Source: Nanobdellota archaeon
Lineage (GTDB): Archaea; Nanobdellota; Nanobdellia; Pacearchaeales; GW2011-AR1
Reading direction: 5' to 3'
Assembly: GCA_021799535.1 (NCBI GenBank)
Contig: JAJZAH010000001.1
Span: forward strand, 32,254-96,253
DNA length: 64,000 nt
The notes under the pieces were generated by a model. That model had not been told where the DNA came from and did no database searches. It worked only from the letters and a program-made list of their open reading frames with translations. Every line of letters starts with the position of its first letter. Position 1 is the first letter of the stretch. A program made the translations under genes and the position numbers. Of this stretch, positions 921 to 49,413 are shown piece after piece.

Positions 921-2000
921 TTAACCGTAAATGTCAATCCCCAGGTCAGACATTTCTCTTGAAACAGGCATTGAAGCCTCTTCAAGGTCTTTGCCAAGAA
1001 CGTAAGGGGATTTTACCCCAGTCATTATAGTAATGACACGAACTTTCCCGACAAAATCCTTCGCAATCCTAGCACCAATGATGACTTGTGCATCCTGACT
1101 AAGGTTTTCTGAAACTGTCCTACCGATAACATCAAATTCTTCTAACTTCAAATCAGGTCCGCATGTTATGTGCACCAAAGCTCCGCTAGCACCTTTGTAA
1201 TCCACATCAAGTAGAGGATGAGTAAGGGCTTGCTTAACTGATTCCTGCACACGGTCTGCAGCGTCTGATTCTCCGATTCCTATAACCGCAACTCCGCCGT
1301 TCTTCATAATAGCTGAAACATCAGCGTAGTCAAGGTTAATTAAAGAAGGCAATGTTATTGTCTCGACTATTCCTTTAACCATCGTAGATACAAGTTCATT
1401 CGCCACCGCAAAAGCTTGTTCCAATGGGAGTTGTCCTGCAATATCAACTAATCTGTTGTTATCGAGAACTATGCATGTGTCTGTCGCTTCTCTTAATTCC
1501 TGCAATCCAAATTCTGCTTTGTCTATTCTTGCTTTTTCAGATTCAAATGGCATCGTCACAACACCAATTACTACTGCTCCTGTCTCTTTAGCAAGCTGTG
1601 CTACAACTGGCGCTGATCCTGTTCCTGTTCCTCCGCCTTCACCGGCAAGGACAAAAACCATATCAGAATTGCTTACTGCTTTTTTAAGATCAACCAAGGA
1701 CTCTTTTGCTGCTTCTCTCCCTCTGGTTGGTTTCCCACCTGCGCCAAGTCCTCTTGTCAATTCCTTTCCTAAAAGAATTTTCTCATCAGCCTTGGTCACA
1801 CTGAGGTGAAGAGCATCTGTGTTAGCCGCATAAATGGTAGCTCCGTTGATCCCTTTGTTAAAAAGCCATGTAACCATATTGGATCCGCAACCGCCCATTC
1901 CTACAACCTTAATAGCAGCTTTTCCCGCTTTAAGCTCGTCGAAATTTATGCTGTGCGTCTCTGCGTTCTGGATTGCTTCCTTTGCAAAATCAAGTACCAT
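921..2000 (-). CDS. ftsZ: cell division protein FtsZ
   Basis: Tubulin/FtsZ signature GGGTGTGSAPVVAQ, plus GGCGSNMV and GLGAGGKPTRGREAA. The start at 2000 is chosen because AAGGAGGAAC lies 8 nt upstream; the ORF-track start at 2060 adds 20 non-conserved residues. Confidence 0.95.
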   Translation of the reverse strand: MVLDFAKEAIQNAETHSINFDELKAGKAAIKVVGMGGCGSNMVTWLFNKGINGATIYAANTDALHLSVTKADEKILLGKELTRGLGAGGKPTRGREAAKESLVDLKKAVSNSDMVFVLAGEGGGTGTGSAPVVAQLAKETGAVVIGVVTMPFESEKARIDKAEFGLQELREATDTCIVLDNNRLVDIAGQLPLEQAFAVANELVSTMVKGIVETITLPSLINLDYADVSAIMKNGGVAVIGIGESDAADRVQESVKQALTHPLLDVDYKGASGALVHITCGPDLKLEEFDVIGRTVSENLSQDAQVIIGARIAKDFVGKVRVITIMTGVKSPYVLGKDLEEASMPVSREMSDLGIDIYG

Positions 2001-2199
2001 ATTTTGTTCCTCCTTTTTATTTCTCTTTCTCTTTGCTACGCAAAGCTCCCTATATTGCAAGAATTAATTGAACTCTCTTTAAATATATTTATGTTAGTAA
2101 ATATATTTTCAGCCCGTACATGGTAAAAAACCACTAGATATATTTAGACTAGCAGGGATATTTTCAAGTGACTTTCGAAAGATACTTCAAATCAGTTTT

Positions 2200-2418
2200 T
2201 CAGAGCAGATCCTCATCCCACCCTTCAATTGATTCCGTTTTATCCTCTTCAGGCTCAATTTTGACATCAGAAAATTCTTTTAAGTGAAGCTTTGAAATCG
2301 CCACGTTTATGTCATAATCAAAAAATCCCCTTGCAAGGAGTTGCTCTTTTATCTCCTCAATCGAAAGCCCCCTCTCAAGATTGGATAAGATATACTTTCC
2401 AAGGTCATTTTTATCCAT
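2200..2418 (-). CDS. hypothetical small protein
   Basis: 72-aa ORF in the same orientation as its neighbours. No motif recognised. Confidence 0.4.
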   Translation of the reverse strand: MDKNDLGKYILSNLERGLSIEEIKEQLLARGFFDYDINVAISKLHLKEFSDVKIEPEEDKTESIEGWDEDLL

Positions 2419-2438
2419 TTTATATTAAGGATCGCAGA

Positions 2439-3014
2439 TTATAAAAGACTTACTAAATTAGATAAGTCTCTTATTAATTTCCAGCCTTTCTTTATTTTGA
2501 GATTGCTTTTCTCAGCAAGGAGTTTTATGGGTTCCTGACTGACCGGCACCCTTCCATTATCTATAACTGGAAGTTCAAGCTTTTCCGTACCTCTGAGTTC
2601 AATTACTATATTTTTCCCCATGCTTATTGCACCTGAATTCTTCCATCCGGATCCAAAGCCGGCATCAAGCAGTTTCCTGGCACTGTCAAAATCTCTACAG
2701 ATCACATGAATAATTGGAGGATCAACTTTGAATTTTACAGAATACTCTTTACTTACCCTTCTAATTTCAGAGTTTAGCTCGTTAAACCTGACACGATCAT
2801 GGCTGACCCACAAAGAGAGCCTCCTGTCCTTTGCAGGCTTGTCTACCATGAGGAGAGCTCTGCCAGAGCAGGAAGACGTCGTATAGTAATCTGTTTTCCT
2901 ATTTATCTTTCCGCAAAGAGCCTCTATTTTTTCGTCCCATTTTCCAACAGAAGACTTGTCTCCTTTCTTAAGAACATCGCTTTTACGCTGTTCAAAATTA
3001 GCTTCAGGCATCAA
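2439..3014 (-). CDS. taw3: tRNA wybutosine/wyosine-synthesizing protein 3 (Taw3/TYW3 family methyltransferase)
   Basis: Contains the family-typical YYTTSSCSGR block and is about 190 aa long. Confidence 0.7.
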   Translation of the reverse strand: MMPEANFEQRKSDVLKKGDKSSVGKWDEKIEALCGKINRKTDYYTTSSCSGRALLMVDKPAKDRRLSLWVSHDRVRFNELNSEIRRVSKEYSVKFKVDPPIIHVICRDFDSARKLLDAGFGSGWKNSGAISMGKNIVIELRGTEKLELPVIDNGRVPVSQEPIKLLAEKSNLKIKKGWKLIRDLSNLVSLL

Positions 3015-3040
3015 AAAATAAACTAAAATTCAATTTAATT

Positions 3041-3706
3041 CTATTCCCTCTTCAAAATCTCGGCCGTAATCCCTTCCTGAGAGCAAAGCTCCTTGAATTC
3101 TTCAGCATCTTTTTCAGTTCCGACCACAGTCCCCCAATGCATTGGAATAGCAATCCCTGGTTTTATTATCTTGGCAGCCTCAGCCGCTTCCTCAGCGCTC
3201 ATCGTGAACCTGCCCCCGACAGGAAGAAGGGCAACAAATTTTTTGTCTGGTTGGTTATAACCCGTGAGTTTCTGCATTTCAGGTATCACATCAGTATCTC
3301 CGGCATGATAAATAATCACATCATTTGTTTTAACAATATACCCCACAAGATCCTCCTCTTTTGTGTGAAATGTCTTGTCAATATTGTACGCGGGAATAGT
3401 GGAAACTTTTACAGTTCCGAGGTCAACTTCCTGATTGGGGGAAACAACCTCCATCCTTATAGGCACCTGAAAACGCGCAATCTTACTCTGCGAATCGGCA
3501 GTCATGATTATTTTCGTCCCTTCCTTTACAATTTTTCCAATATCTTCGAAACTGCAATGGTCATAATGCCCGTGTGTAATCAGAATAAGATCAGCTTTTG
3601 GAAGATCTTCTCTTATTTTAAAAGGATCTATATAGATTATTTTTGAATTTTGTATCAAAAATCCTGAGTGGCCAAGCCAATGCAGATCCACTTCCCCTAT
3701 TTTCAT
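3041..3706 (-). CDS. metallo-beta-lactamase fold hydrolase (UPF0173-like)
   Basis: HWLGHSGF and ITHGHYDHC (HxHxDH) metal-binding motifs. The start is moved to MKIGEV (ATG at 3704-3706). Confidence 0.75.
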   Translation of the reverse strand: MKIGEVDLHWLGHSGFLIQNSKIIYIDPFKIREDLPKADLILITHGHYDHCSFEDIGKIVKEGTKIIMTADSQSKIARFQVPIRMEVVSPNQEVDLGTVKVSTIPAYNIDKTFHTKEEDLVGYIVKTNDVIIYHAGDTDVIPEMQKLTGYNQPDKKFVALLPVGGRFTMSAEEAAEAAKIIKPGIAIPMHWGTVVGTEKDAEEFKELCSQEGITAEILKRE

Positions 3707-3760
3707 AATCCTGTAAAACAAAAAACGCTTTTTAAGGCTTTATATTTAAAATTTATCTTA

Positions 3761-4822
3761 TCAGTCATCTTCCAGAACTCTCTTTTTGAAAATTTCAGCA
3801 TCTTCAGACCTTACCTGTGCGGCCGCAGCAGGAATGTGTCCCCCCCCATTGGCATCCTCAAGCCCTTCTATCCCTTTTTTCATAAGTTCACCCATATCAA
3901 TTTTCCCGTTCGAGCTTCTCGCACTAAATCTGACTAAATTTTTTGCCTTCATCATGAAAAGGATATTTTTATCCGGATCTGCTCCGCCAATCAAGGTCGC
4001 AACGTAGCTCAGTATATCAAAGGGCGATTTCACTTCATAAAAATAAATTTCCCTTTTCGGAAAATACTTCCGGCTTTTCGGGAAGTCATCCACAACCCTG
4101 TAAACCTCTTTTTCAATTATTTCGTGGGTTTCGGAAATCTCCTCCAAGTTCTTTTCTTTTAAAAGATTGTAAACATATCTGGGATCACTCTTGTAATAGA
4201 TAAGTGCCGATGAAATCTTCCTCGCATTTATTCCAGGAACAGAAGAAGAAATTGTATCAGGCTCGGCTTCAGGATAGAAAGACTGCAAAAACCTGAGATT
4301 TTTCTCTGATCTGAACGAATAATCCGCAAATATCGCCGCACATACAAGCCAACCCCACTCTTCTGAATCAAGGAAGTCCTCGCCAAGGATAAAAGTGATG
4401 AGTCCCGTGCAGTCCTGAGAGACCACCTTTATGATGTTAGATTTATCAATAAGCTTGTCCCCTATGGGATGATGGTCTATCAAAAAAACCCCCATCTCAT
4501 TCCTCATTTCCTCAAAGCCCTCATAATCAATGCCTTCTATATTTATGTCGCTTATTATCACTTTGGTTATATCTTTGTCTTTTAATTTAACAAGAACCTC
4601 TTTTGCCATATCCGACTTTATCTCAAGAAAATCAATATAATCCACTTTTATCCTTTTAGCTTCAAGTATCTTTTCCAAAAAAAGCCCCGAGGAGAGCCCA
4701 TCAAGGTCATTATGCGTCAAAACCGCGACTTTGTCTTTAAGACCTATTGAGTCCAAAAATTTGAAAAAATCCTCTTTTGAGCCAAGGATATAATCAACAT
4801 TCATTTTCAAAGTAGCCTGCAA
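3761..4822 (-). CDS. DHH/DHHA1 family phosphoesterase (NrnA/RecJ-like), paralog 1
   Basis: THNDLDGLSSG (DxD), LIDHHP (DHH) and NGGGHIPAAAA (DHHA1 GGGH). Confidence 0.8.
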   Translation of the reverse strand: MQATLKMNVDYILGSKEDFFKFLDSIGLKDKVAVLTHNDLDGLSSGLFLEKILEAKRIKVDYIDFLEIKSDMAKEVLVKLKDKDITKVIISDINIEGIDYEGFEEMRNEMGVFLIDHHPIGDKLIDKSNIIKVVSQDCTGLITFILGEDFLDSEEWGWLVCAAIFADYSFRSEKNLRFLQSFYPEAEPDTISSSVPGINARKISSALIYYKSDPRYVYNLLKEKNLEEISETHEIIEKEVYRVVDDFPKSRKYFPKREIYFYEVKSPFDILSYVATLIGGADPDKNILFMMKAKNLVRFSARSSNGKIDMGELMKKGIEGLEDANGGGHIPAAAAQVRSEDAEIFKKRVLEDD

Positions 4823-4894
4823 TCCTTTTTAAAATTTGGTAATATTGCATGAGAGAATAATTAAGTTTATAACCTGATAATCTCTTAAGTTGGC

Positions 4895-5128
4895 ATGGCA
4901 ATAATAGAATCTGAAAATTATATCAATGCATTGAAGAGGACTAAGCCCAGGGATATAAAAATAGCCTCTTATGGCGGCCACGCTTTGCTGAAAGGTCAGG
5001 ATAACAAGTGCTCGAAATGCAAAAAAGACCTGAGAGCGGGATATTATAAGATGGTGGTAGATCCTGCAACCAAAGAAAAGAAGGCTATATGCTCTGATTG
5101 CTTGGTTCAGATACCTGAAAGAAGATAA
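4895..5128 (+). CDS. hypothetical protein with a possible zinc ribbon
   Basis: 77-aa ORF with CSKC...CSDC cysteine pairs. Confidence 0.4.
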   Translation: MAIIESENYINALKRTKPRDIKIASYGGHALLKGQDNKCSKCKKDLRAGYYKMVVDPATKEKKAICSDCLVQIPERR

Positions 5129-5269
5129 TTCTGAAAAATCAGCTCAAGAATAACAAAGCCAGATTGCCCGCAAAAGGGATAGAATCCTGAAAGTTTTAAA
5201 CCGTTGGATAAGCAAAAACAACAAAGAGATTTCAAAAAAATAAAGAAAATTTAATGAGAGGAATTACAT

Positions 5270-5374
5270 TTAGTACTCTTCGTCATCACCGCTGTCCCAG
5301 TTGTCCCCGTTGTCTTCATTTTCCCCTTCAAATTCCTCTTCTTTGGGTTCCTGTTTCTTTTTTGGTTTAGGCAT
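5270..5374 (-). CDS. very small acidic protein (34 aa), hypothetical
   Basis: MPKPKKKQEPKEEEFEGENEDNGDNWDSGDDEEY. A GGAGGT Shine-Dalgarno-like motif lies 8 nt upstream of the ATG. The ORF is below the track cutoff. Confidence 0.3.
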   Translation of the reverse strand: MPKPKKKQEPKEEEFEGENEDNGDNWDSGDDEEY

Positions 5375-5714
5375 TTAAAATACCTCCAATTTAATTAACC
5401 CTAATTCAGGGTCGGAGTTTTTAAAGTTTGCTGCACAAGCCGAAGTGACAGAAAGACAGGGAAAAGTTTAAAAGGGAAAATTAAAGGATTTTGTAGAATC
5501 TATTTGATTTTCTTATCCATACCAAAAGTATTCAAGTACATTCTTGATAAGTAGTCTGTAAGAGGTAAGACCTTGCTTTTTCAGAAAAGAAGGCGAGAAA
5601 AATGAAATCAAATTTACTGGAATTGTTATGAAAAATGGCTGAAAAGAATTCTTTATGTTTTCCTCCTTAGAATTTTAGACTCGAGGTTAACAAAATCCTC
5701 CAAACATTAAAAGC

Positions 5715-6149
5715 CTAATTGTCTTCAACATGAAAAGTGAACCTGTATCTGTCCTTTCCCACACGTCTTATTTTGTCGACTATAAATCTCCCAATTTCAA
5801 AGGTATTACTAACGTGCGGATCTCCGCAAGGACGCGAATCAAAGTCTCCAATCGAGACGATTCTTATTTTTCCTGTTCCCTCTGGGATCCTAAGATTTTC
5901 AACGTCCTCAACTTCTCCGCGATCAAAAATTTTTATTTCAACATCCATACCCCTTTGGATTATGCTATTCACTTCAAGGTTTAGTCCGTTTACGTCAAGC
6001 CCCCTTAAATCTTGGGAGGAGATGAGTTCTATCTCGCCATAATCTTCAAAAAATTTTGCAATCCTTACAGTTATATCAGAAATTTTATTTTGTATAAAGC
6101 GGGTCATTATATGCTCCCCGCTTTGCAATCTCCCTTCGCCTGGTTTCAT
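5715..6149 (-). CDS. AlaX-S-like tRNA_SAD domain protein (putative trans-editing deacylase)
   Basis: The C-terminal RPCGDPHVSNTFEIGRFIVDKIRRVGKDRYRFTFHV parallels the CxxxH...GEIG...K.R block of free-standing AlaX. The N-terminal HxxxH position reads EHIMTR, so the second His is absent. Confidence 0.5.
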   Translation of the reverse strand: MKPGEGRLQSGEHIMTRFIQNKISDITVRIAKFFEDYGEIELISSQDLRGLDVNGLNLEVNSIIQRGMDVEIKIFDRGEVEDVENLRIPEGTGKIRIVSIGDFDSRPCGDPHVSNTFEIGRFIVDKIRRVGKDRYRFTFHVEDN

Positions 6150-6401
6150 GAATCCCGAAAAACAAACAAGTTTTATAAATTAATAGGTTAATAGGTAACA
6201 CCAGAACTCTTTGATTAATCACGCTCCGTACGGATTAATATTCACTCATTTTTTCAACGGATTAAGGATGTTCCATTCAATTAAATTAGACAATCTATCT
6301 CGTCTTAACAATTTCTTCAGCAGAGCACTGAGATTTAGTCCAGTGCAAAGCAGCTGATTTTGCAAAGCAAGAAATTTCTTCTATGGGTTTGATGGAAAAG
6401 A

Positions 6402-7727
6402 TTAATCTCCCATTCCCAGCTTCTCAATCAAGGCTGCAGCTTCAAGCATTTTTTGTTCATTAAATTTATCAGCCATTATCTGCATCCCAACAGGAACACC
6501 GTCGATTTTTCCTGCAGGTATAGAGATTGAACAATTTCCTGCAAGGTTTGACGGAATAGTGAGAGCGTCATAAGAATACATTTCTTCCACCGAGATTTTG
6601 CTCCCAATCTTGTGAGGTAGCCTTGAAACTGTCGGAGAGATTATAATGTCAAGGTCTCCGAATGCTTTTTGGTATTCTTCTTCTATAATTTTTTTCACTT
6701 TAAGTGCAAGGTGGTAATTTCTCCCTTCATGTTCTGCTTTTGTTATCTCGGCACCTCCAAGGATCCTTCTCAGTACCTCAGGGCCACATGCTTCTTCAAT
6801 CTTCTTGCCGTAACGTCTTCCATCAAGTTTCCTTGTCGCGGAGAAAAACTCTGTGTAAACGAGAGGGTAATAAGTTTCAATAGCAAGACCAACATGGGGG
6901 ATATTTATATGCCCTACAGTCCAACCGTATTTGCCAGAAGCTTCTTTCACTTTTTCATTGATTATTTTCTGTATCCTCTCATCCTGTATTTTAAAATCCA
7001 ATAGGCCAACTTTCAGTTTTTTTCCTTTTCCGATTTCTTTTAGGCTCAATTTCGGGCTTTCAGCACTGATTGGATCTCTTTCATCTTCCCCTTTTATGAC
7101 ATCAAGAAGAAGCGCCGCATCACGAACATCTCTTGCAATAGGCCCGATCTGGTCCAGGCTCATTGAGAGATCTATAAGCCCATATCTTGAGACTGTCGAA
7201 TAAGTAGGCTTTATGCCCACTACCCCGCAATGAGATGAAGGGTTTCTTATGGACCCTCCGGTATCCGAGCCAAGAGCCAGGTCACAGAATCCCGCAGCAA
7301 CAGCAGCAGCAGATCCAGAAGATGAACCTCCGGGAACAAGTTCAGGACTAACCGGATTTCTCACAGGACCAAAAGCGGAAGTTTCACCAGAAGACCCGCA
7401 TGCAAATTCATCGGAGTTCACCATGCCCATTATTAGTCCGTCCTCAGATCTTATCTTTTCTATAACTGTAGCATCGTAAGTTGAAAGATAATCTTCAAGA
7501 ACTCTAGAAGAGCACGAAGCATGAAGTCCAAGGACATTTATATTTGGTTTAATTGCAATTATATAACCTGCAAGTCTCCCTGCCTTTCTGCTTTTTATCT
7601 TCCCATCAATTTTTTTCGCTTCCCCGAGCAATTCTTTCTCCGGACGGAGCTCAAGAAAGATATTGAGTTCTTTATTTTTCTTTTTGATTCTCTCAAGATA
7701 AGTCTTTAATTTTTCAATTGTCGTCAT
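6402..7727 (-). CDS. gatA: Asp/Glu-tRNA amidotransferase subunit A
   Basis: Amidase signature GGSSSGSAAAVAAG plus GSDTGGSIRNPS. The protein is 441 aa. Confidence 0.9.
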   Translation of the reverse strand: MTTIEKLKTYLERIKKKNKELNIFLELRPEKELLGEAKKIDGKIKSRKAGRLAGYIIAIKPNINVLGLHASCSSRVLEDYLSTYDATVIEKIRSEDGLIMGMVNSDEFACGSSGETSAFGPVRNPVSPELVPGGSSSGSAAAVAAGFCDLALGSDTGGSIRNPSSHCGVVGIKPTYSTVSRYGLIDLSMSLDQIGPIARDVRDAALLLDVIKGEDERDPISAESPKLSLKEIGKGKKLKVGLLDFKIQDERIQKIINEKVKEASGKYGWTVGHINIPHVGLAIETYYPLVYTEFFSATRKLDGRRYGKKIEEACGPEVLRRILGGAEITKAEHEGRNYHLALKVKKIIEEEYQKAFGDLDIIISPTVSRLPHKIGSKISVEEMYSYDALTIPSNLAGNCSISIPAGKIDGVPVGMQIMADKFNEQKMLEAAALIEKLGMGD

Positions 7728-16778: not shown

Positions 16779-16850
16779 CGAGCCTACTAGGAATCGAACC
16801 TAGATCTTCGGGGCCGAAACCCGAAATTCTGTCCATTAAACTATAGGCCC
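16779..16850 (-). tRNA. tRNA-Arg (anticodon UCG)
   Basis: Hand-folded cloverleaf. Acceptor GGGCCTA/TAGGCTC has one G-U pair. The D stem is GTTT/GAAT. The anticodon stem TCGGG/CCCGA carries the loop TT-TCG-GC. The T arm is CTAGG-TTCGATT-CCTAG. No CCA is encoded. Confidence 0.9.
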
Positions 16851-32106: not shown

Positions 32107-32770
32107 TTAGACTTTCTGAAATAGATATTCCCAGTGCTCTGCAGTTACATCTGCAGTTGCACTTGGCCTACTTTGAAGTTTCTTGTATAAGATTTTATAT
32201 CCTCGAAATAAACTTTCAATTTCTTGATTAGTAAAGAAGTGATGTGGAATATCCCCATCAATCTGATTAGTATTCATCCTTGTGTTTTTTTCAATTTCAT
32301 ACCCGCTCGAAGCTCGGGGATCTTTGATTGAAGGAACCGCAAAAGCAAGGATTCCACCTGGTTTCAGGATATTTTTCATATCTTCGCACCATTTCACAAT
32401 TTGTTTTCTTAACCCATGTTCGACAACAAGGGTAGAGATTATCCCGTCAAAATAGTTTCTATTATAAGAAAAATCCCACACAGAATGAACAGAAGAATTT
32501 ACTTTATCAACAAAATTGTTCTCTTTAAGCAGTTCATGGAGAATATCAATTGCTTTTTGAGAAGCATCTATCGAAATAAACTTTCAAATTCTTATCCTTC
32601 AATGTATTACACAAAAATAGGGTATGTCGTCCTGTTCCACACCCACAATCAAGAACTTTAAGGGATTTCGCTTGACTCTCCGACAAGAATTTTGAAAACT
32701 CCTTAACCACAGGCATGACCTCTTTTTGTATTACTCCCTTCTCTTTGTAAATTGAATTCCAGTCTGCCAT
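32107..32770 (-). pseudogene. SAM-dependent methyltransferase interrupted by a single frameshift
   Basis: Motif I (LKVLDCGCGTGRHTLFL) is in the 32546-32770 frame. The continuation FISIDASQKAIDILHELLKENNFVDKVNSSVHSVWDFSYN...LKPGGILAF is in a different frame. The shift lies near 32580-32590 in a T-rich run. Confidence 0.65.
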
Positions 32771-32788: not shown

Positions 32789-35782
32789 TTATTCAAACCA
32801 TATCCCGGGCATCCCGGGCTTGGCTTTTTTGGCACGGCCTTGAGGATCATACTTATTATTATCCTGCACGGAATAGATAAAGACTTCTTTGCCAAGTTCT
32901 TTTTCGAACCTCTTTTTGTCAAGATCTCCGATTTCAAACGGGAGAAAATAAAGATGAACTTTGGAAACTTTGTCACCACGACCTTCAAGCTTTCTCATTA
33001 TGGGAAGGACATAATTAATAACTTGGCTGTTTAGATTAACACCTGCTTTCTGATTAAGTTCCCCCTCTTTAAACTCCGGCCACTTCGAAGTCGAAATGAA
33101 ACTACTGTTTCCAAGCTTTTCCCAAAGCTCCTCGGCAATGTGGGGGCAAAACGGAGAGAGTAGTTTAAGGAAATCTTCAAGCACCTTCTTGCCAACTTCT
33201 TTCTCCTTTGAGAGCTCCTCAAAAAGCTCTCTCAGCGCAATTGTAACTTTCCTGTAATCAAAATTCTCAATGCGTTCTCCAAAGTATTTTATGGAATTGT
33301 TCATTTTAAGTTCTAATTCTTTGGAGGTTCTTCCCGGCTTAGTTTTGACAAAAAAGTCATAAATTCTCTTTATGAGCCTGAAGCTCCCTTGAATCCCTTT
33401 CTCACTCCAGTCAAAATCTTTATCAGGTGATGCGACAGAAACAAGAAAAAGCCTCAGTGAATCTGCCCCGTATTTGCTGATAGTATCAAGGGGATTGACA
33501 ACATTGCCCTTTGACTTACTCATCTTGTCACCACCTTCTCCATGAAGCATACCCTGATGGAAAAGCCTTACCGCCGGTTCATCAAATCTGATAAGACCGA
33601 GATCTCTCAGGAATTTGACGTAATACCTCGAATAGATTAGATGCATACAGGCATGCTCCGCGCCACCTATATAGATATCAGGAGGGCACCAGTACGATGC
33701 TTTCTCTTTATCAAAGATCTCTTTGTTATTATGCGGATCTGTATACCTCAAAAAATACCACGAGGAGTTCACAAAAGTGTCCATCGTATCGGTTTCGCGT
33801 TTTGCTTTTCCGTCGCATTTTGGACATTTAACATTTATCCATTTATCATTTGTAAGAAGAGGGTTGCCTTCGCCAAAACTTACGTTTTTTGGAAGTTTTA
33901 CTGGAAGGTCTTCATAAGAGACTGGAACAACGCCACACCTCTCACAGTGTACTACCGGAATAGGAGTCCCCCAATACCTCTGCCTTGAGATTCCCCAGTC
34001 TTTTAGTCTGAACTGGACCGACTTTTTGCCTGATCCCTGCTCTTTCAAAAAGTTCGTAATCTCTTCTTTTGCCTTTTCATTTTCAATGCCATTAAATCTT
34101 CCGGAATTTATCAGGGTTCCCTCCCCCGTGTAAGCTTCGGTCAAGTTCCCATCATTAAGCTCAAAATCAACAGGGTCTATAACTATCTTGATTGGAATCC
34201 CATACTTTTTTGCGAACTCATAATCCCTCTTATCGTGAGCTGGTACAGCCATCACCATTCCGCTCCCATAATCAGCGATAACAAAATTACCCATGTAAAT
34301 AGGAACCTTTTCACCATTGACAGGATTGATTGCATAAGATCCTGTAAAAGCTCCCTCTTTTTCAAGATCAGCAAGATCTTTCTCCGAAATTGATTTTAGT
34401 TTTTTAAGGAACCCCTCAACTTCTTTTTTATGATCAGATGTGACAAGCCTTTTCAGTTCTCTGTGATAAGGTGAAATCACGACAAAAGTCACCCCATAAA
34501 TTGTATCTGGTCTCGTCGTAAAGACGGGCCATTTTTCGCCAGCAAGAATTTCTGAAAGAAGTTCAGGAAATTTATCAATTAGGAAATGCCCGCGACCATT
34601 AAGTTCCAAAACTTTCCCACCCAAAGTATTGTGATATTCCTCAACACTTTTCAGGATATAGTTCTCATCATTATCTGAAGAGAAGATTATGACCTCGCCT
34701 ACAGAATCTTTCACAAGTGAATTAATGTCAAAGTCATAGAAAGTTTTCTTATAATCAACTCTCGCAAATTTACAAGGAGCGACTAAAATTAATTTTTTAA
34801 TCTTTGTTTTTGTCTCACCCAGCCACCTGACTAAAAAAGCCGCTCCTCTGCTGTGTCCAACAAGAATCGAATTTTTATCTATTTTTATCTTATCAAAAAT
34901 TTTTCTCCATTCTTCATAGGTCGCCTTTGAATCAACAGGCATTTGCGGGAATTTTGAATCGATATTTTTTTTAGCCAACTCACTTTTCAGCCAAGGCATC
35001 CAATGTTTATTATAATCTTTATCTTTCTCTGCATTTCCCCCATGAACAACCACCACTTTAGACGTTTGCGTCTCAACTTCAAAATCAATTTCTGTTCCAT
35101 AGCTTTTCCCGATCCAATGTTTCTGCATCGATTTCGTCGTTTCAGGCCAATTCATATTATCAAGGTTATCAAGAAGCTCATCAGCATAGTTTGTAAGCTT
35201 GAAAAACCACTGTTTTAGATATTTGGATTCAACAGAGGTCTTCTCATGCCTCCAGCATTTTCCATCGACAACTTGCTCGTTTGCTAAGACTGTTTTGCAT
35301 TCAGGGCACCAGTTCACAAGAGATTCTTTCTGATAGGCTAAGCCAGACTCGAGCATCTTTAGGAATATCCATTGATCCCATCTGTAATAATCCGGATTGG
35401 AAGTGTCCACAACCCTTCCCCAGTCATAAGTGAGGCCCAGCCTCTTTTGCTGTATCACAAAATTCTTGATTGAATTTTTTGTGTAATCTTGCGGATGCGT
35501 TCCTTCCTTTATTGCTGCATTCTCGGCAGGAAGACCTAGTGCATCGAAACCTATCGGATGAAGGACATTATAACCTTGCATAATCTTGTACCTCGCAATT
35601 ATGTCCCCAATGGTGTAGTTTAATGCATGACCCATATGAAGCCCTGAGCCTGAAGGGTAAGGGAACATTTCAAGAGAATAGAATTTTTTCTTCTTGGGAT
35701 CTTCTGAAACATAGAACGTCTCCTCATCGTTCCACCTCTTTTGCCATTTCTTCTCAATCTTAGAAAAATTAAATTCTGCCAT
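32789..35782 (-). CDS. leuS: leucyl-tRNA synthetase (bacterial-like layout) carrying an inserted alpha/beta serine-hydrolase domain
   Basis: Core LeuRS motifs are present: FYSLEMFPYPSGSGLHMGH, GFDALGLPAEN, the Zn module WCPECKTVLANEQV...GKCWRHE, CP1 editing TTRPDT...AVPAHDKRDYEFAKKYG, and KMSKSKGN. An extra segment of about 175 aa (residues ~241-415) carries GHSRG, SSDND and GRGHF. Confidence 0.93.
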   Translation of the reverse strand: MAEFNFSKIEKKWQKRWNDEETFYVSEDPKKKKFYSLEMFPYPSGSGLHMGHALNYTIGDIIARYKIMQGYNVLHPIGFDALGLPAENAAIKEGTHPQDYTKNSIKNFVIQQKRLGLTYDWGRVVDTSNPDYYRWDQWIFLKMLESGLAYQKESLVNWCPECKTVLANEQVVDGKCWRHEKTSVESKYLKQWFFKLTNYADELLDNLDNMNWPETTKSMQKHWIGKSYGTEIDFEVETQTSKVVVVHGGNAEKDKDYNKHWMPWLKSELAKKNIDSKFPQMPVDSKATYEEWRKIFDKIKIDKNSILVGHSRGAAFLVRWLGETKTKIKKLILVAPCKFARVDYKKTFYDFDINSLVKDSVGEVIIFSSDNDENYILKSVEEYHNTLGGKVLELNGRGHFLIDKFPELLSEILAGEKWPVFTTRPDTIYGVTFVVISPYHRELKRLVTSDHKKEVEGFLKKLKSISEKDLADLEKEGAFTGSYAINPVNGEKVPIYMGNFVIADYGSGMVMAVPAHDKRDYEFAKKYGIPIKIVIDPVDFELNDGNLTEAYTGEGTLINSGRFNGIENEKAKEEITNFLKEQGSGKKSVQFRLKDWGISRQRYWGTPIPVVHCERCGVVPVSYEDLPVKLPKNVSFGEGNPLLTNDKWINVKCPKCDGKAKRETDTMDTFVNSSWYFLRYTDPHNNKEIFDKEKASYWCPPDIYIGGAEHACMHLIYSRYYVKFLRDLGLIRFDEPAVRLFHQGMLHGEGGDKMSKSKGNVVNPLDTISKYGADSLRLFLVSVASPDKDFDWSEKGIQGSFRLIKRIYDFFVKTKPGRTSKELELKMNNSIKYFGERIENFDYRKVTIALRELFEELSKEKEVGKKVLEDFLKLLSPFCPHIAEELWEKLGNSSFISTSKWPEFKEGELNQKAGVNLNSQVINYVLPIMRKLEGRGDKVSKVHLYFLPFEIGDLDKKRFEKELGKEVFIYSVQDNNKYDPQGRAKKAKPGMPGIWFE

Positions 35783-36064: not shown

Positions 36065-36592
36065 ATGGAAAATAAAGAAGAGTTTATCGCATATCTGACC
36101 GGGAATGTTCTCTCAAGCAACTCAAAAAAAGCATACACTCTTCTGAAAGCAGGATCTTTCGGAGAAATGAACGGAAGTAAGGTCATATACTCCCTATATG
36201 AAGGAATGTTCCTTTTGAAAAATCGGGGCATGATTATTCACTCAGGCAAAAGAGTCCTTGAAGAGGGGGAAGTAAATGAAAAATTTTCAAGGATTGAAAG
36301 AAAGTTCCCATTAAAGTATAAAATATACGAAGATTTAAGGGGAAAGGGTTTTATCGTCAAATCCGGAATAAAGTACGGATCGGATTTTTCTATTTATGAT
36401 AAAGGCAGAAAACCCGGAAAAGACCATTCATCATGGCTCCTATCCGCCGAAAGGTGGTCCGAAAAAATCAAAATGGAAGAATTAATATTAAAGAACAGGG
36501 TCGCGAACTCCACTAAGAAAAAGACTATTCTGGCAATTGAAAGCGGAGAAGGCGGGATAGTTTATTATGAAATGAGCTGGAAAAAGCTCTGA
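36065..36592 (+). CDS. endA: tRNA-splicing endonuclease
   Basis: Catalytic C-terminal domain GIKYGSDFSIYDKGRKPGKDHSSWLL. The protein is 175 aa. Confidence 0.8.
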   Translation: MENKEEFIAYLTGNVLSSNSKKAYTLLKAGSFGEMNGSKVIYSLYEGMFLLKNRGMIIHSGKRVLEEGEVNEKFSRIERKFPLKYKIYEDLRGKGFIVKSGIKYGSDFSIYDKGRKPGKDHSSWLLSAERWSEKIKMEELILKNRVANSTKKKTILAIESGEGGIVYYEMSWKKL

Positions 36593-36633: not shown

Positions 36634-37554
36634 ATGCCAATAAAAGATGCCGAAGCTGTAAAAAGAAAGATATTAGACTTCCTGGGAAATTCCGGTCCAA
36701 GCCTTCCCGTGCATATCGCAAGGGAGATCGGCTTGGATATGATTTTCACATCAGCGTTCCTGTCAGAATTAATCTCTCACGAAAAAATAAAAGCTTCCGA
36801 GATGAAAATAGGAACAAGCCCCGTGTATTTTATTCCGGGAAATGAAGAAGGTCTTGAAAAGTTCTCTGATTTTTTAAAAGGAAAAGAGCGTGAGACTTTT
36901 AACCTTCTAAAAAAAGAAGAGTTCCTGGTAGACTCCGAACAAGAACCTGCAATAAAAATAGCCCTCAGGAGCCTCAAAGACTTTGCAAAACCGTTCGAAA
37001 GAAACGGAAAATTGATATGGAGATATTTTACGGTAGGGGAAACAGAGTATGGAAAAAGTGCCTGTACAAAAGAAGAAGCCGCTCCTGAGAATACCTCTGA
37101 GGTTTACAACACCGGACCGGAAATTGACAAAGAACCGGAAATAAAAGCTAAATTCGTAACTTCTGACAAAAAAGAGACTGAACCAAAAAAAGAACAGGGT
37201 CTTCCAAAAAAGAGACCCCAAAAAAAGAAAGCGAAAATTGCGGGGAAGGAAAAAGATGATAGGTTCTTCAACAAAGTAAAGGAATTTCTTTCAAAAGACG
37301 GTTCGGAAATGACTGACATAATTGGATTTAGCAAAAAAGACTTTACAATTAAAGCAAAAAAAGGCGGAAAAGAATATTTAATTGTCGCTTACAATAAAAA
37401 GAAGATTACAGATAAAGATATCCTAAATGCCTATAAAAAATCAGAGGACTACGGGTTGGACTATTCAGTTTTGTCCATGGGAGATATTCCGAAAAAAGTA
37501 AAAAACTTTATGGATGCGGTGAAGAATATAGACTCGATTGGGAAGATTGAGTAA
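36634..37554 (+). CDS. hypothetical protein with an N-terminal winged-helix-like region and a Lys-rich linker
   Basis: ILDFLGNSGPSLPVHIAREIGLDMIFTSAFLSELISHEKI looks like a wHTH. The middle is KE/P-rich. The C-terminal globular part is unassigned. Confidence 0.5.
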   Translation: MPIKDAEAVKRKILDFLGNSGPSLPVHIAREIGLDMIFTSAFLSELISHEKIKASEMKIGTSPVYFIPGNEEGLEKFSDFLKGKERETFNLLKKEEFLVDSEQEPAIKIALRSLKDFAKPFERNGKLIWRYFTVGETEYGKSACTKEEAAPENTSEVYNTGPEIDKEPEIKAKFVTSDKKETEPKKEQGLPKKRPQKKKAKIAGKEKDDRFFNKVKEFLSKDGSEMTDIIGFSKKDFTIKAKKGGKEYLIVAYNKKKITDKDILNAYKKSEDYGLDYSVLSMGDIPKKVKNFMDAVKNIDSIGKIE

Positions 37555-37849: not shown

Positions 37850-37918
37850 ACAAAAGCCTGTTGAAAATCCTTTTAAACTTCTTATTTTTCATAGACTTAT
37901 CTTGGCAATTGGAAATTT

Positions 37919-37990
37919 GGCTCTGTAGCTCAGTGTCAGAGCGCTGCTCTCATGAGGCAGAGGTCGGGAGTTAAATTCTCCTCAGAGCCA
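37919..37990 (+). tRNA. tRNA with CAU anticodon (elongator Met, or Ile2 if C34 is modified)
   Basis: Hand-folded cloverleaf. The acceptor is GGCTCTG/CAGAGCC and the D arm is GCTC-AGTGTCA-GAGC. The anticodon stem CTGCT/GGCAG carries the loop CT-CAT-GA. The T arm is GGGAG-TTAAATT-CTCCT. It lacks the A1-U72 pair and the GGG/CCC stem of initiators. Confidence 0.9.
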
Positions 37991-38143
37991 TTATCATAAA
38001 GCAAAGCATGCACAAAAAATTGATGGCCCTGTAACAAATAAGAATTCTTGTATTAGCACAAAATCGCGCGAAAAGTTCAGAAAAAAAAGTAAAAACAAAT
38101 TAAAATCTCTCCAACCAAAAAGATCCGTCTATTGTCCTAAAAC

Positions 38144-39187: not shown

Positions 39188-39259
39188 AGCGGAGGGCGGG
39201 AGTCGAACCCGCACAAATTCGCTCTGCAGGCGAACGCAGTGCCGTTGTGCCACCTCCGC
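39188..39259 (-). tRNA. tRNA-Cys (anticodon GCA)
   Basis: Hand-folded cloverleaf. The acceptor is GCGGAGG/CCTCCGC. The anticodon stem TTCGC/GCGAA carries the loop CT-GCA-GA. The T arm is GCGGG-TTCGACT-CCCGC and the discriminator is U. The ORF 39076-39261 is its antisense artefact. Confidence 0.9.
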
Positions 39260-49020: not shown

Positions 49021-49070
49021 AATCCCACGACTTATAAATACTCTGGTGATGAAACTACTCTTATAAAGAA

Positions 49071-49154
49071 TGTGAGGGACAGGATTCGAACCTGCGAAAG
49101 GCAAAAGCCACAGGATCTTAAGTCCTGCCCGTTTGACCACTCCGGCACCCCCAC
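49071..49154 (-). tRNA. tRNA-Leu (anticodon UAA), class II with a long variable arm
   Basis: Hand-folded cloverleaf. The acceptor is GTGGGGG/CCCTCAC. The anticodon stem CAGGA/TCCTG carries the loop CT-TAA-GA. The variable arm is GGC-TTTT-GCC and the T arm is GCAGG-TTCGAAT-CCTGT. Confidence 0.9.
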
Positions 49155-49413
49155 ATTATTTAGATGACGGTGAGTTCTTTTTGAACTTTCCGGCATCCCC
49201 GCATGATTAACGAGTGCTGGTCGCGCCATTTTGTTTAGCATCGTCCGACACCGCAACACGGACAAAAAAATTAACCGGAGGAAACTTAAAAATTTACCTA
49301 TTTTAAGGGGAGATGAAAGAAAGAATTAAAAAGATTATAAGGCGATTCTGGAAAAAGTGTAATTTGTCAGTGGTAAAAAGGAAAAGATTTTTAAATCGAC
49401 GGGCCCAAAAGAA

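Follow-up and report, generated by a model that had tools for sequence, protein, structure and literature searches.

To our knowledge, proofreading by synthetases relies on few folds, namely CP1, INS/YbaK, AlaX/ThrRS-N2, DTD and PheRS B3/B4. CP1 is a hydrolytic module inserted in LeuRS, IleRS and ValRS, and its editing pocket is built from threonines and an aspartate and uses no protein nucleophile. Members of the INS/YbaK/ProXp superfamily of ProRS can be inserted in the synthetase, encoded nearby or free-standing and trans-acting; their distribution is patchy, and editing by INS/YbaK has been demonstrated. Another extra enzymatic domain on a class Ia synthetase is the GNAT domain of IleRS (NCBIfam NF040702). 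A separate set of hydrolases is formed by RBBP9 and YdeN (PF06821; structures 2qs9, 7oex, 9fcr and 1uxo), small free proteins of which RBBP9 is, as far as we know, the only characterised member. RBBP9 cleaves alpha-aminoacyl groups, forms an acyl-enzyme with amino acids and requires a free alpha-amine (PMC8866121), and it is reported to activate valacyclovir, the L-valyl ester of a nucleoside analogue (Shenoy 2020, as cited in PMC7730578). Here we describe a LeuRS, from a small archaeon of the DPANN/Pacearchaeota type, in which a predicted hydrolase of the RBBP9/YdeN type is nested inside CP1. The gene was found in the window, by which we mean the whole 64-kb stretch of DNA analysed, and its features are as follows:

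32789..35782, minus strand: leuS, a complete ORF for a bacterial-type LeuRS of 997 aa (uninterrupted reading frame, TIGR00396, synteny, fold)
35627..35638, minus strand: HMGH (HIGH) signature of the synthetic site, residues 49-52 (motif position)
35075..35107, minus strand: first strand of the CP1 hairpin, KSYGTEIDFEV, residues 226-236, the 5' flank of the insert (predicted strand and alignment)
34535..35074, minus strand: additional segment of 180 aa when compared with insert-less orthologues, residues 237-416 (orthologue alignment)
34574..35053, minus strand: PF06821 Ser_hydrolase match, residues 244-403, a minimal alpha/beta-hydrolase fold (Pfam profile and predicted fold)
35039..35044, minus strand: H247-G248, the HG motif after strand 1 (alignment)
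34844..34858, minus strand: predicted nucleophile elbow GHSRG, with Ser311 (34850-34852) aligned to RBBP9 Ser75
34667..34669, minus strand: Asp372, predicted triad acid, aligned to RBBP9 Asp138
34586..34588, minus strand: His399, predicted triad base, aligned to RBBP9 His165
34046..34537, minus strand: remainder of the CP1 editing domain, residues 416-579 (PF13603 model positions 21-184)
34502..34519, minus strand: threonine-rich editing motif TTRPDT, in which T422, T423 and T427 align to T. thermophilus T247, T248 and T252
34223..34237, minus strand: HDKRD, in which D520 aligns to T. thermophilus D347, the conserved editing-site Asp
34145..34171, minus strand: second CP1 insertion hotspot, residues 538-546, empty in the window and filled by NUDIX or PF06821 in relatives (comparison with relatives)
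33512..33526, minus strand: KMSKS signature, residues 753-757 (motif position and alignment of relatives)

The host protein has the marks of an ordinary bacterial-type LeuRS. It scores 914.3 bits against TIGR00396 (leuS_bact, cutoff 548.4) in two stretches with the insert between them, and the top Foldseek matches of its model are the bacterial LeuRS structures 1h3n, 6q89 and 4aq7. The gene order at the locus is YjbQ-S17e-306aa-EndA-leuS-...-AlaRS, and insert-less orthologues occupy the same single syntenic position, which suggests that this leuS is the housekeeping copy. In an alignment of 99 relatives, H49, G51 and H52 of HMGH and the zinc-binding residues C159, C162 and C176 are invariant, and so are the CP1 editing residues T422, T423, R424, D426 and T427 together with H516, D517, R519 and D520, whether the insert is present or absent. 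A role for the hydrolase as a substitute for a degenerate CP1 is thereby ruled out. The initial annotation had claimed that the whole LeuRS core, its editing motifs and KMSKS stay in frame around the insert, and all of these motifs are indeed present and in frame.

Aligned against insert-less orthologues, the extra segment takes the place of a 3-residue turn (DGK, NGQ and the like) and consists of a short linker, the PF06821 domain and a C-terminal helix (EFPELLxEI). It had initially been placed just before CP1, at 34538-35062 (residues 241-415). Those bounds do lie within the extra segment, which in full runs over residues 237-416, but the insertion point has to be moved: it is inside the first CP1 beta-hairpin, after about position 20 of the PF13603 model, where the turn at T. 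thermophilus residues 239-243 is replaced. Because the insert ends 5 residues before TTRPDT, we estimate a distance of roughly 15-20 A between the tethered Ser hydrolase and the CP1 pocket.

The insert alone (residues 241-415) matches PF06821 with 55.4 bits (E 9e-15, gathering cutoff 22 bits) over model positions 2-157 of 172, and it still scores 50.4 bits within the full-length protein. Its sequence also matches YdeN (1uxo, E 2e-7) and RBBP9 (2qs9 and 9fcr, E about 1e-4). The AF2 model of the insert alone (pLDDT 90.8, pTM 0.90) takes up the same fold, in that the seven best PDB matches are all RBBP9 (TM 0.82-0.86; 7oex, 2qs9, 9fcr) or YdeN (TM 0.88 and rmsd 2.1 A for 1uxo), while the best matches outside the family reach a TMq of up to 0.73. 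When scanned against Pfam and NCBIfam, the insert matches alpha/beta-hydrolase families only and none of the known editing folds (CP1, INS/YbaK, AlaX, DTD, ThrRS-N2). Profile match, predicted fold and intact triad together confirm, at the level of sequence and model, the proposal that a complete, autonomously folding serine-hydrolase domain of the YdeN/RBBP9 type sits inside this LeuRS. It shares with RBBP9 and YdeN the fold, the alignable Ser/Asp/His order and a size of about 175-190 aa, and differs from them in being only 19-23% identical, in being embedded in another enzyme where they are free, and in belonging to a distinct DPANN/CPR subfamily with the motifs HWxPW, FLVRWLxE and EFPELL.

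We now consider whether this domain is likely to be an active enzyme. The GHSxG elbow, the Asp and the His follow one another as in YdeN/RBBP9, just as the initial annotation had read them, and Ser311 is matched by Ser in 78/80 inserts, Asp372 by Asp or Glu in 76/80 and His399 by His in 80/80. The Gly of the elbow is retained in 79-80 of 81 aligned site-1 inserts, and the HG motif (H in 79/81, G in 77/81) falls at the predicted oxyanion-hole position, the usual one in alpha/beta hydrolases. Across 80 divergent hydrolase-bearing LeuRS, no part of the insert is conserved better than its catalytic positions, and other family-conserved positions fall to 60-85%. Because the catalytic positions are the best kept although the inserts have a mean pairwise identity of 44%, the conservation has the pattern expected under selection for catalysis, and the insert is apparently catalytically competent. 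It might instead be a structural, tRNA-binding or protein-docking module whose triad is kept by recent descent only, which would agree with the 5 of 80 inserts that lack one aligned triad residue and with a pocket that is relaxed relative to free forms (the residue after the nucleophile Ser is Cys in 108 of 120 free forms and A, C, L or R in fusions). With Ser and His retained in 78-80 of 80 inserts despite such divergence, we regard a non-catalytic module as extremely unlikely.

Could the architecture be an artefact of assembly or gene calling? Independent ENA and JGI assemblies contain the identical LeuRS protein on a total of 11 contigs, the ORF is uninterrupted, no repeats are found at the insert junctions, and among the 120 closest LeuRS a search for the same insert finds 80, from many assemblies, with a hydrolase in that position. 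The chance of a chimera or a miscalled gene is thus practically nil, and we treat misassembly as ruled out. A protein search with the insert alone listed free-standing proteins only, with even the window's own LeuRS absent, a result that reflects ranking and not the rarity of fusions. As for novelty, the initial annotation knew of no described LeuRS of this kind, and our literature search likewise found no paper describing a hydrolase-in-LeuRS architecture; the architecture is not rare, however, since dozens of public sequence clusters share it under the names 'leucine--tRNA ligase' or 'class I tRNA ligase family protein', which label these hydrolase-bearing proteins as tRNA ligases only. This goes part of the way towards the common LeuRS feature that the initial annotation had named as grounds against its own claim.

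The hydrolase is linked to LeuRS in more ways than one. The CP1-hairpin and pre-CP1 sites together account for 31 representative clusters with PF06821, and in DPANN archaea the same subfamily is found at three LeuRS sites besides the CP1 hairpin: we find PF06821 before CP1 in two LeuRS, in the second CP1 loop in six and after KMSKS in two. Overall, LeuRS makes up about 39 of 48 multi-domain representative clusters, with four or more insertion sites, a figure that is partly inflated because the query had LeuRS flanks. The same association is seen between separate genes. Free-standing PF06821 genes lie downstream of an insert-less leuS at five loci and upstream at three, at a spacing of 1-28 nt or with a 4 nt overlap, and a further one precedes an archaeal-type leuS by about 490 nt. 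By genome scan, about 7 of 25 free archaeal copies adjoin leuS, where chance would give roughly 2 per 1000 genes. The closest free-standing proteins to the window insert (P0001 and P0002, 61-63% identity) are both leuS-adjacent and have in common with it a subgroup-specific 2-residue deletion; within the 64-kb window itself there is no second PF06821 copy. Beyond LeuRS, PF06821 is inserted in one ValRS, and a PF06821 gene lies 16 nt downstream of a CPR IleRS gene. The several LeuRS sites, the ValRS insertion and the genes adjoining leuS support a functional tie between this subfamily and class Ia synthetases.

The reading that we favour, at a rough probability of 0.4, is that the insert is a dispensable aminoacyl-ester hydrolase tethered to LeuRS and working with the synthetase. 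As a portable deacylase, the hydrolase would serve class Ia enzymes in any of three forms, as a free protein, as the product of a gene beside that of the synthetase or as an insert in the synthetase, and it would strip the alpha-aminoacyl group from a LeuRS-made product that the CP1 pocket leaves uncleared. Candidate substrates are the 3' end of a mis-acylated tRNA, or an aminoacyl-adenylate or ester after its release. An extra proofreading or deacylase activity had already been suggested in the initial annotation, and the evidence speaks partly for and partly against it. We infer the activity, the aminoacyl-ester substrate and the action on LeuRS products, and prefer them because the chemistry of RBBP9 fits and because the hydrolase is repeatedly linked to LeuRS, ValRS and IleRS. 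Several points count against this deacylase. Nothing obviously needs replacing, since CP1 keeps its editing residues unchanged whether or not the insert is there, and Glu108, the alpha-amine anchor of RBBP9, has no clear equivalent in the insert alignment. The LeuRS sites are structurally non-equivalent, one of them lying after KMSKS, so that no single spatial arrangement with the CP1 pocket is needed.

It is useful to set the proposed deacylase beside the established editing modules. Like CP1, it is a hydrolytic module inserted in a synthetase, here nested in CP1 itself, and aminoacyl-ester hydrolysis would be common to both; unlike CP1, it has an unrelated fold and a predicted covalent Ser-His-Asp mechanism, and where CP1 is universal the hydrolase is dispensable and polymorphic. 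With INS/YbaK/ProXp the PF06821 module shares the inserted, nearby and free-standing forms and the patchy distribution, but there is no kinship in sequence or fold, so that editing by the insert would be an analogy. The GNAT domain of IleRS has the fold and chemistry of an acetyltransferase. If the insert does deacylate aminoacyl esters, a Ser-His-Asp alpha/beta-hydrolase would bring to class Ia synthetases a mechanistically different quality control by way of a covalent acyl-enzyme, and the RBBP9/YdeN family, so far poorly understood, would gain its first physiological context.

The association with the cognate synthetase, of the kind seen in trans-editing, is present but not exclusive, raising the question of what the hydrolase does elsewhere. 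The same subfamily occurs inside UvrB (two clusters), the Der/EngA GTPase, a GT2 glycosyltransferase and a YdjC-like protein, hosts in which tRNA editing makes no sense and which therefore count against a deacylase. They point to the main rival, which we hold to be somewhat unlikely: a passenger enzyme, that is, an autonomous hydrolase with a substrate unrelated to leucylation, which in the streamlined genomes of DPANN and CPR would ride in permissive loops at the surface of abundant housekeeping proteins, or beside their genes, for expression. LeuRS would then be the commonest host because CP1 tolerates insertions, and the CP1 loops do take unrelated modules at the same places, namely NUDIX and a 120-aa module. 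Fusion of the domain to NUDIX in two-domain proteins also fits a passenger, as does the finding that free-standing copies in CPR bacteria show no recurrent neighbour, the only synteny being that with leuS in archaea. What a passenger leaves poorly explained is the share of LeuRS among the multi-domain clusters, with the inflation mentioned above, the excess of free genes beside leuS, on both sides and with both LeuRS types, and the ValRS and IleRS links.

The distribution of the insert within populations bears on both of these readings. The LeuRS P0123, with the insert, and P0136, without it, show 98-99% protein identity, and their syntenic 15-kb loci are 99.1-99.2% identical at the DNA level; between such 99%-identical loci the difference is a clean 555-nt vs 9-nt polymorphism. 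The module is therefore dispensable, and the LeuRS-hydrolase architecture is widespread and often gained or lost. Quantitative comparison shows no co-divergence of insert and core, whose identities are uncorrelated (r = -0.06, 3003 pairs), and inserted and free forms interleave, the nearest neighbour being free-standing for 15 of 80 inserts. The nearest relative of the window LeuRS core, P0124, has no insert. A single ancient, vertically inherited insertion is not supported, given the insert-less forms nested among insert-bearing ones, this insert-less nearest relative, the uncorrelated identities and two divergent PF06821 subgroups at the same LeuRS site. The allele polymorphism and the lack of co-divergence disfavour a simple "second editing site", and together with the insert-less P0124 they weigh against the deacylase; the polymorphism, the missing co-divergence and the interleaving all suit a passenger.

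The clean polymorphism, the zero correlation of insert with host and the interleaving also allow a further reading, in which PF06821 would be an unspliced, in-frame 'guest cassette' that recombines between permissive loops and free genes in DPANN and CPR, with LeuRS (four or more sites), ValRS, UvrB, Der and GT2 as hosts, and is kept for a useful hydrolase. We consider this unlikely; if true, the cassette would be a mobile element at the level of the domain, set apart from both inteins and transposons. The resemblance to inteins is one of population pattern only: both are in frame at conserved housekeeping sites, present or absent in near-identical alleles and decoupled from the host phylogeny. 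In contrast to an intein, the insert has a conserved enzyme fold and an intact active site and is predicted to be retained in the mature protein. An intein is in fact ruled out, since a profile search of the protein gives no Hint, intein, homing-endonuclease or LAGLIDADG match and splice-junction residues are missing (the first residues of the insert are ETQTSK and its last are EILAGE, with K as the next residue).

Presence/absence polymorphism within a population also resembles that of defence or resistance genes, and PF06821 and NUDIX co-occur on LeuRS as well as in the two-domain proteins. By analogy, the hydrolase and the NUDIX of relatives might be antidotes that destroy aminoacyl-nucleotide mimics poisoning LeuRS, such as agrocin-84/TM84-like or microcin-C-like leucyl-adenylate analogues. 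The antidote would be comparable to MccF-type immunity, but fused to the target; LeuRS is a known target of such toxins, as PDB 3zgz and 5ah5, both among the fold matches, show. With analogy as its basis, no toxin genes seen and the non-synthetase hosts left unexplained, we judge an antidote very unlikely.

The chemistry of the family suggests one more alternative, a long shot in our view, in which an RBBP9-like aminopeptidase would supply substrate: working beside the synthetase, it would cut leucine or other hydrophobic residues from the N termini of peptides scavenged by organisms that are unable to make amino acids. RBBP9 is an aminopeptidase, but one that prefers aromatic residues (PMC8866121). 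LeuRS, ValRS and IleRS all handle hydrophobic amino acids, as substrate supply would have it; against it, there is no sign of channelling, the amino-acid site of LeuRS lies in the Rossmann core and not in CP1, and the UvrB, Der and GT2 hosts are again unaccounted for.

Whatever the function, the locus is a natural experiment in domain insertion, in which an essential enzyme accommodates a second enzyme of 180 aa at a distance of 5 residues from its editing motif, alleles with and without the insert occur in populations, and the same loops take NUDIX and other modules. This bears on the protein engineering of LeuRS and CP1, on how very small DPANN/CPR genomes combine functions, and on annotation, given that such proteins now carry tRNA-ligase names only.

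Two smaller observations concern composition and neighbourhood. The insert of one relative has a GC content of 0.327 vs 0.318 for the rest of its gene, with no signal of foreign composition, and the window insert is slightly AT-richer than its surroundings. Separately, in one organism only, a PF06821 copy lies between the tRNA-ligation genes RtcB and Archease.

The leucyl-tRNA synthetase (LeuRS) of the window is encoded by a single unbroken ORF of 997 aa (leuS) and is of the bacterial type, scoring 914 bits against TIGR00396 (cutoff 548) with the match in two blocks. Its Pfam matches are tRNA-synt_1, the editing domain CP1 (PF13603; residues 416-579, model positions 21-184) and Anticodon_1. 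As the initial annotation had it, the LeuRS motifs are kept in frame: HMGH, KMSKS, the zinc cysteines, TTRPDT and HDKRD are each present, and each is invariant in 99 relatives. A full-length AF2 model with these 99 relatives as input (pLDDT 88.1, pTM 0.74) finds its best PDB matches in the LeuRS of T. thermophilus, N. gonorrhoeae and E. coli. Alignment to the T. thermophilus enzyme equates T422, T423, T427 and D520 with T247, T248, T252 and D347, the residues of the post-transfer editing pocket; with its editing residues invariant in the 99 relatives, CP1 is fully intact. The nearest named relatives are Candidatus Pacearchaeota, Woesearchaeota and Nanoarchaeota MAGs. The gene order (YjbQ, S17e, a 306-aa protein, tRNA-splicing endonuclease, leuS, ..., AlaRS) is the same around orthologues that lack the insert, and the window gene is therefore the housekeeping leuS, not a stray paralogue.

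leuS, its neighbours and the tRNA genes of the window
16779-16850: tRNA-Arg(tcg)
32107-32481, reverse strand: 124-aa ORF with a GTG start, directly downstream of leuS, resembling a SAM-dependent methyltransferase in its C-terminal part; possibly truncated or with a mis-set start
32789-35782, reverse strand: leuS
36065-36592, forward strand: tRNA-splicing endonuclease homologue, divergently upstream of leuS, present in 12 fetched DPANN leuS loci
36634-37554, forward strand: 306-aa protein with no family assigned, divergently upstream of leuS, present in 9 fetched loci
37918-37991: tRNA-Met(cat)
39188-39259: tRNA-Cys(gca)
49070-49155: tRNA-Leu(taa), which could serve as cognate substrate for the window LeuRS in assays

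The claim that this LeuRS carries a complete YdeN/RBBP9-type hydrolase domain is borne out by the family match, the fold and the triad. Residues 241-415 (34538-35062) match PF06821 (Ser_hydrolase) with 55.4 bits (E 9e-15, gathering cutoff 22), and the proposed GHSxG elbow, Asp and His are Ser311 (GHSRG), Asp372 and His399, aligned with Ser75, Asp138 and His165 of RBBP9. Modelled alone, the insert is predicted to fold independently, with pLDDT 90.8 and pTM 0.90. Its sequence matches among solved structures are YdeN and RBBP9, and its seven best PDB fold matches are RBBP9 (7oex, 2qs9, 9fcr; TM 0.82-0.86) and YdeN (1uxo; TM 0.88, rmsd 2.1 Å); other esterases follow, with a query-normalised TM of up to 0.73 and a target-normalised TM of at most 0.65. 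What has to be corrected is the place, which had been given as just before CP1: alignment to insert-less orthologues and to T. thermophilus LeuRS puts the insert inside the first CP1 hairpin. The extra segment, residues 237-416, takes the place of a turn of three residues (DGK, NGQ or NDN, among others), which in T. thermophilus lies at residues 239-243; five residues separate the end of the segment from TTRPDT. Since strands 226-236 and 416-422 flank the domain in the full-length model, it sits at the tip of the first CP1 beta-hairpin (site 1). An intein was considered and rejected: the Hint motifs that are a feature of inteins are absent from the protein. Tested for membership, the LeuRS belongs to bacterial-type LeuRS and the insert to PF06821, and the insert lies outside every known editing fold, so that a role like that of an editing or trans-editing factor is at this point hypothetical.

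A misassembly is ruled out, because independent ENA and JGI assemblies contain the identical 997-aa protein on 11 contigs, of which three exceed 200 kb. Related genomes carry the insertion too: among the 120 best LeuRS relatives, 81 have an insertion of over 100 residues exactly at site 1, the hydrolase in 80 and a different 123-aa module in one (P0176), while the other 39 have a short turn there (three residues in 38, eight in P0238). In a wider search, a query spanning both junctions retrieved 149 sequences from 1.84 billion 50%-identity representatives. Most are free-standing hydrolases (101); LeuRS carry the domain at or beside site 1 in 31, in the second CP1 loop in 4 and after KMSKS in 2, two more are LeuRS fragments, one is a ValRS and the remainder are other hosts. 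Public records call the fused proteins only 'leucine--tRNA ligase', 'class I tRNA ligase family protein' or even 'isoleucine--tRNA ligase'. The suggestion that no such LeuRS had been described thus stands in part: full-text literature open without subscription yielded none, and the searchable papers hold no description of a CP1-nested alpha/beta-hydrolase that recurs across DPANN, varies in presence within populations and is accompanied by operon-linked free copies, but with 80 of 120 relatives sharing it the architecture is not unique. We rate the fusion as a synthetase bearing an accessory hydrolytic domain, a kind already known.

The module is dispensable, as a pair of nearly identical enzymes demonstrates: P0123 (1004 aa) has the insert, P0136 (822 aa) does not, and the two are otherwise 98-99% identical. 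Their 15-kb Pacearchaeota loci (L084 and L085) are syntenic at 99.1-99.2% DNA identity, and the sole structural difference is an in-frame one, 555 nt (L084 6715-7267) against 9 nt (L085 6715-6721; AATGGCCAA, coding NGQ), swapped exactly at the domain borders with undiverged flanks. At the empty site of L085, AATGGCC occurs twice, 10 nt apart, possibly by chance. The nearest core relative of the window LeuRS, P0124 (85% identity in one comparison, 81-94% in another), is likewise insert-less, and in a neighbour-joining tree of the core a few insert-less clades branch from within the insert-bearing forms. Across 3003 pairs, the identity of the inserts is uncorrelated with that of the cores (Pearson r = -0.06): the window insert has its closest counterpart in P0125 (74%), although the two cores share only 65%. 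For 15 of the 80 inserts the nearest neighbour is a free-standing protein, and two divergent PF06821 subgroups occupy site 1. Taken together, these sequence comparisons point to repeated gain, loss and replacement of the module. Because the DNA coding for the flanks GTEIDF and KWPVFTTRPDT is conserved, cassettes may plausibly be exchanged by recombination there.

The same hydrolase subfamily occupies three or more non-equivalent LeuRS positions beyond site 1, as well as other proteins.

PF06821 domains at other sites and in other hosts (P, homologous proteins or representative clusters; L, genomic loci)
In the CP1 loop of LeuRS: L019, L068, P0271, P0387, P0256, P0300
Before the whole CP1 model in LeuRS: P0329, P0278
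After KMSKS in LeuRS: P0281, P0195
Inside UvrB: P0282, P0378
Between the two G domains of Der/EngA: P0288
Inside a GT2 glycosyltransferase: P0262
Inside a YdjC-like protein: P0327
Two-domain proteins with NUDIX: P0260, P0276
In tandem: P0280

The subfamily thus behaves as a promiscuous guest domain. CP1 receives other guests as well: a second insertion hotspot, empty in the window LeuRS (34145-34171, residues 538-546), holds a NUDIX domain (PF00293) of about 130 aa in P0148, P0166, P0170, P0195, P0205, P0209, P0219 and P0223, often alongside a PF06821 insert, and P0195 (1379 aa) has three inserts altogether. At site 1, P0176 has only a module of about 120 aa (FKEMKFASYLLIEK...) that matches no Pfam family, and in P0162 this module precedes the hydrolase. 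Dispensability, the decoupling of insert from core, the foreign hosts, these other CP1 modules and the intact CP1 all complicate the reading of the domain as just a 'second editing site'. The main competing reading, an autonomous passenger enzyme lodged wherever the loops of abundant proteins permit, would suit the foreign hosts and is only somewhat less likely than the one favoured below, given the attachment to LeuRS. That PF06821 is a non-spliced, in-frame 'guest-domain cassette' moving among housekeeping proteins strikes us as improbable, and would be of high interest if true. An antidote to aminoacyl-nucleotide toxins, formed by the hydrolase together with NUDIX, would draw on their frequent co-residence and is a minor alternative.

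How closely is the hydrolase tied to LeuRS? The nearest homologues of the window insert are free-standing proteins of 166-231 aa from DPANN archaea and Patescibacteria. The two closest, P0001 and P0002 (61-63% identity), share a subgroup-specific two-residue deletion with the inserts of the window, P0122 and P0125, and the gene of each directly follows an insert-less leuS, overlapping it by 4 nt; L002 has a tandem pair of free PF06821 genes after leuS. A scan of GTDB with the insert profile, each species represented by a single genome, returned 80 loci (about 35 with archaeal titles), which were sorted by tblastn. Ten are site-1 fusions and two are second-CP1-loop fusions (L019, L068); four have a free gene abutting an insert-less leuS (upstream in L008 and L015, downstream in L014 and L016), and two have an extra free copy abutting an already fused leuS (L046, L057). 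Further look-ups place the P0043 gene 1 nt downstream and the P0008 gene 28 nt upstream of leuS. On the Woesearchaeota contig L049, a free gene (34-594) lies about 490 nt upstream of a leuS (1081-3819) of the archaeal type (TIGR00395, 816 bits); both LeuRS types are therefore in use among DPANN, each in the company of the hydrolase. Adjacency to leuS was found in none of the roughly 44 bacterial loci of the scan. Without a link to LeuRS in function or expression, it would be difficult to account for fusions at several independent sites and for free genes on either side of leuS of two unrelated types. Other class Ia synthetases are involved too: P0269 is a ValRS with an inserted PF06821 domain, and in Candidatus Yanofskybacteria (L036, MGKI01000011.1) a free gene (5992-6564) lies 16 nt downstream of a CPR IleRS. 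That IleRS (2305-5976, 1223 aa) itself has an inserted histidine-phosphatase (dPGM/CobC-like) domain at residues ~524-693.

The only characterised member of the family, RBBP9, cleaves off N-terminal aminoacyl residues by way of an acyl-enzyme at Ser75, and a free alpha-amine is an absolute requirement (PMC8866121). A reference title in PMC7730578 credits it with activating valacyclovir, the L-valyl ester of a nucleoside analogue. Valacyclovir is chemically similar to the aminoacyl-adenosine that terminates a charged tRNA. The RBBP9 chemistry and the linkage to LeuRS, ValRS and IleRS together favour an accessory aminoacyl-ester hydrolase, to which we give a probability of about 0.4: tethered to LeuRS roughly 15-20 Å from the CP1 pocket (an estimate from the five residues of strand), the domain would clear a LeuRS product that escapes CP1. 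It would be portable in the manner of INS, YbaK and ProXp, the portable factors that serve ProRS. Leucine supply through aminopeptidase action would equally use the RBBP9 chemistry; we consider it a minor alternative.

The hydrolase active site has been kept while much of the domain has changed. Among the 80 hydrolase-bearing LeuRS the inserts average only 44% pairwise identity, and His399 is kept in all 80, Ser311 in 78 and an acid at 372 in 76 (the full triad in 75); in the alignment of 81 site-1 inserts, 79-80 retain the elbow glycines and 77-79 the HG motif. Conservation drops to 60-85% in the inserts at other positions where the free-standing homologues hardly vary, and the residue following the nucleophile, Cys in 108 of 120 free proteins, is Ala, Cys, Leu or Arg in the fusions. 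The alignments agree with selection for catalysis and a pocket that drifts or has been retuned. A non-catalytic role of the inserted domain would accommodate the relaxed positions and, set against the retained triad, is a minor contender.

The P0045 gene, a free copy, is found between RtcB and Archease. In L092 (1695-4983) the string RtcB - PF06821 - Archease runs with a 1-nt gap and then a 4-nt overlap, in one organism only, and a LAGLIDADG_3 ORF lies just upstream of it.
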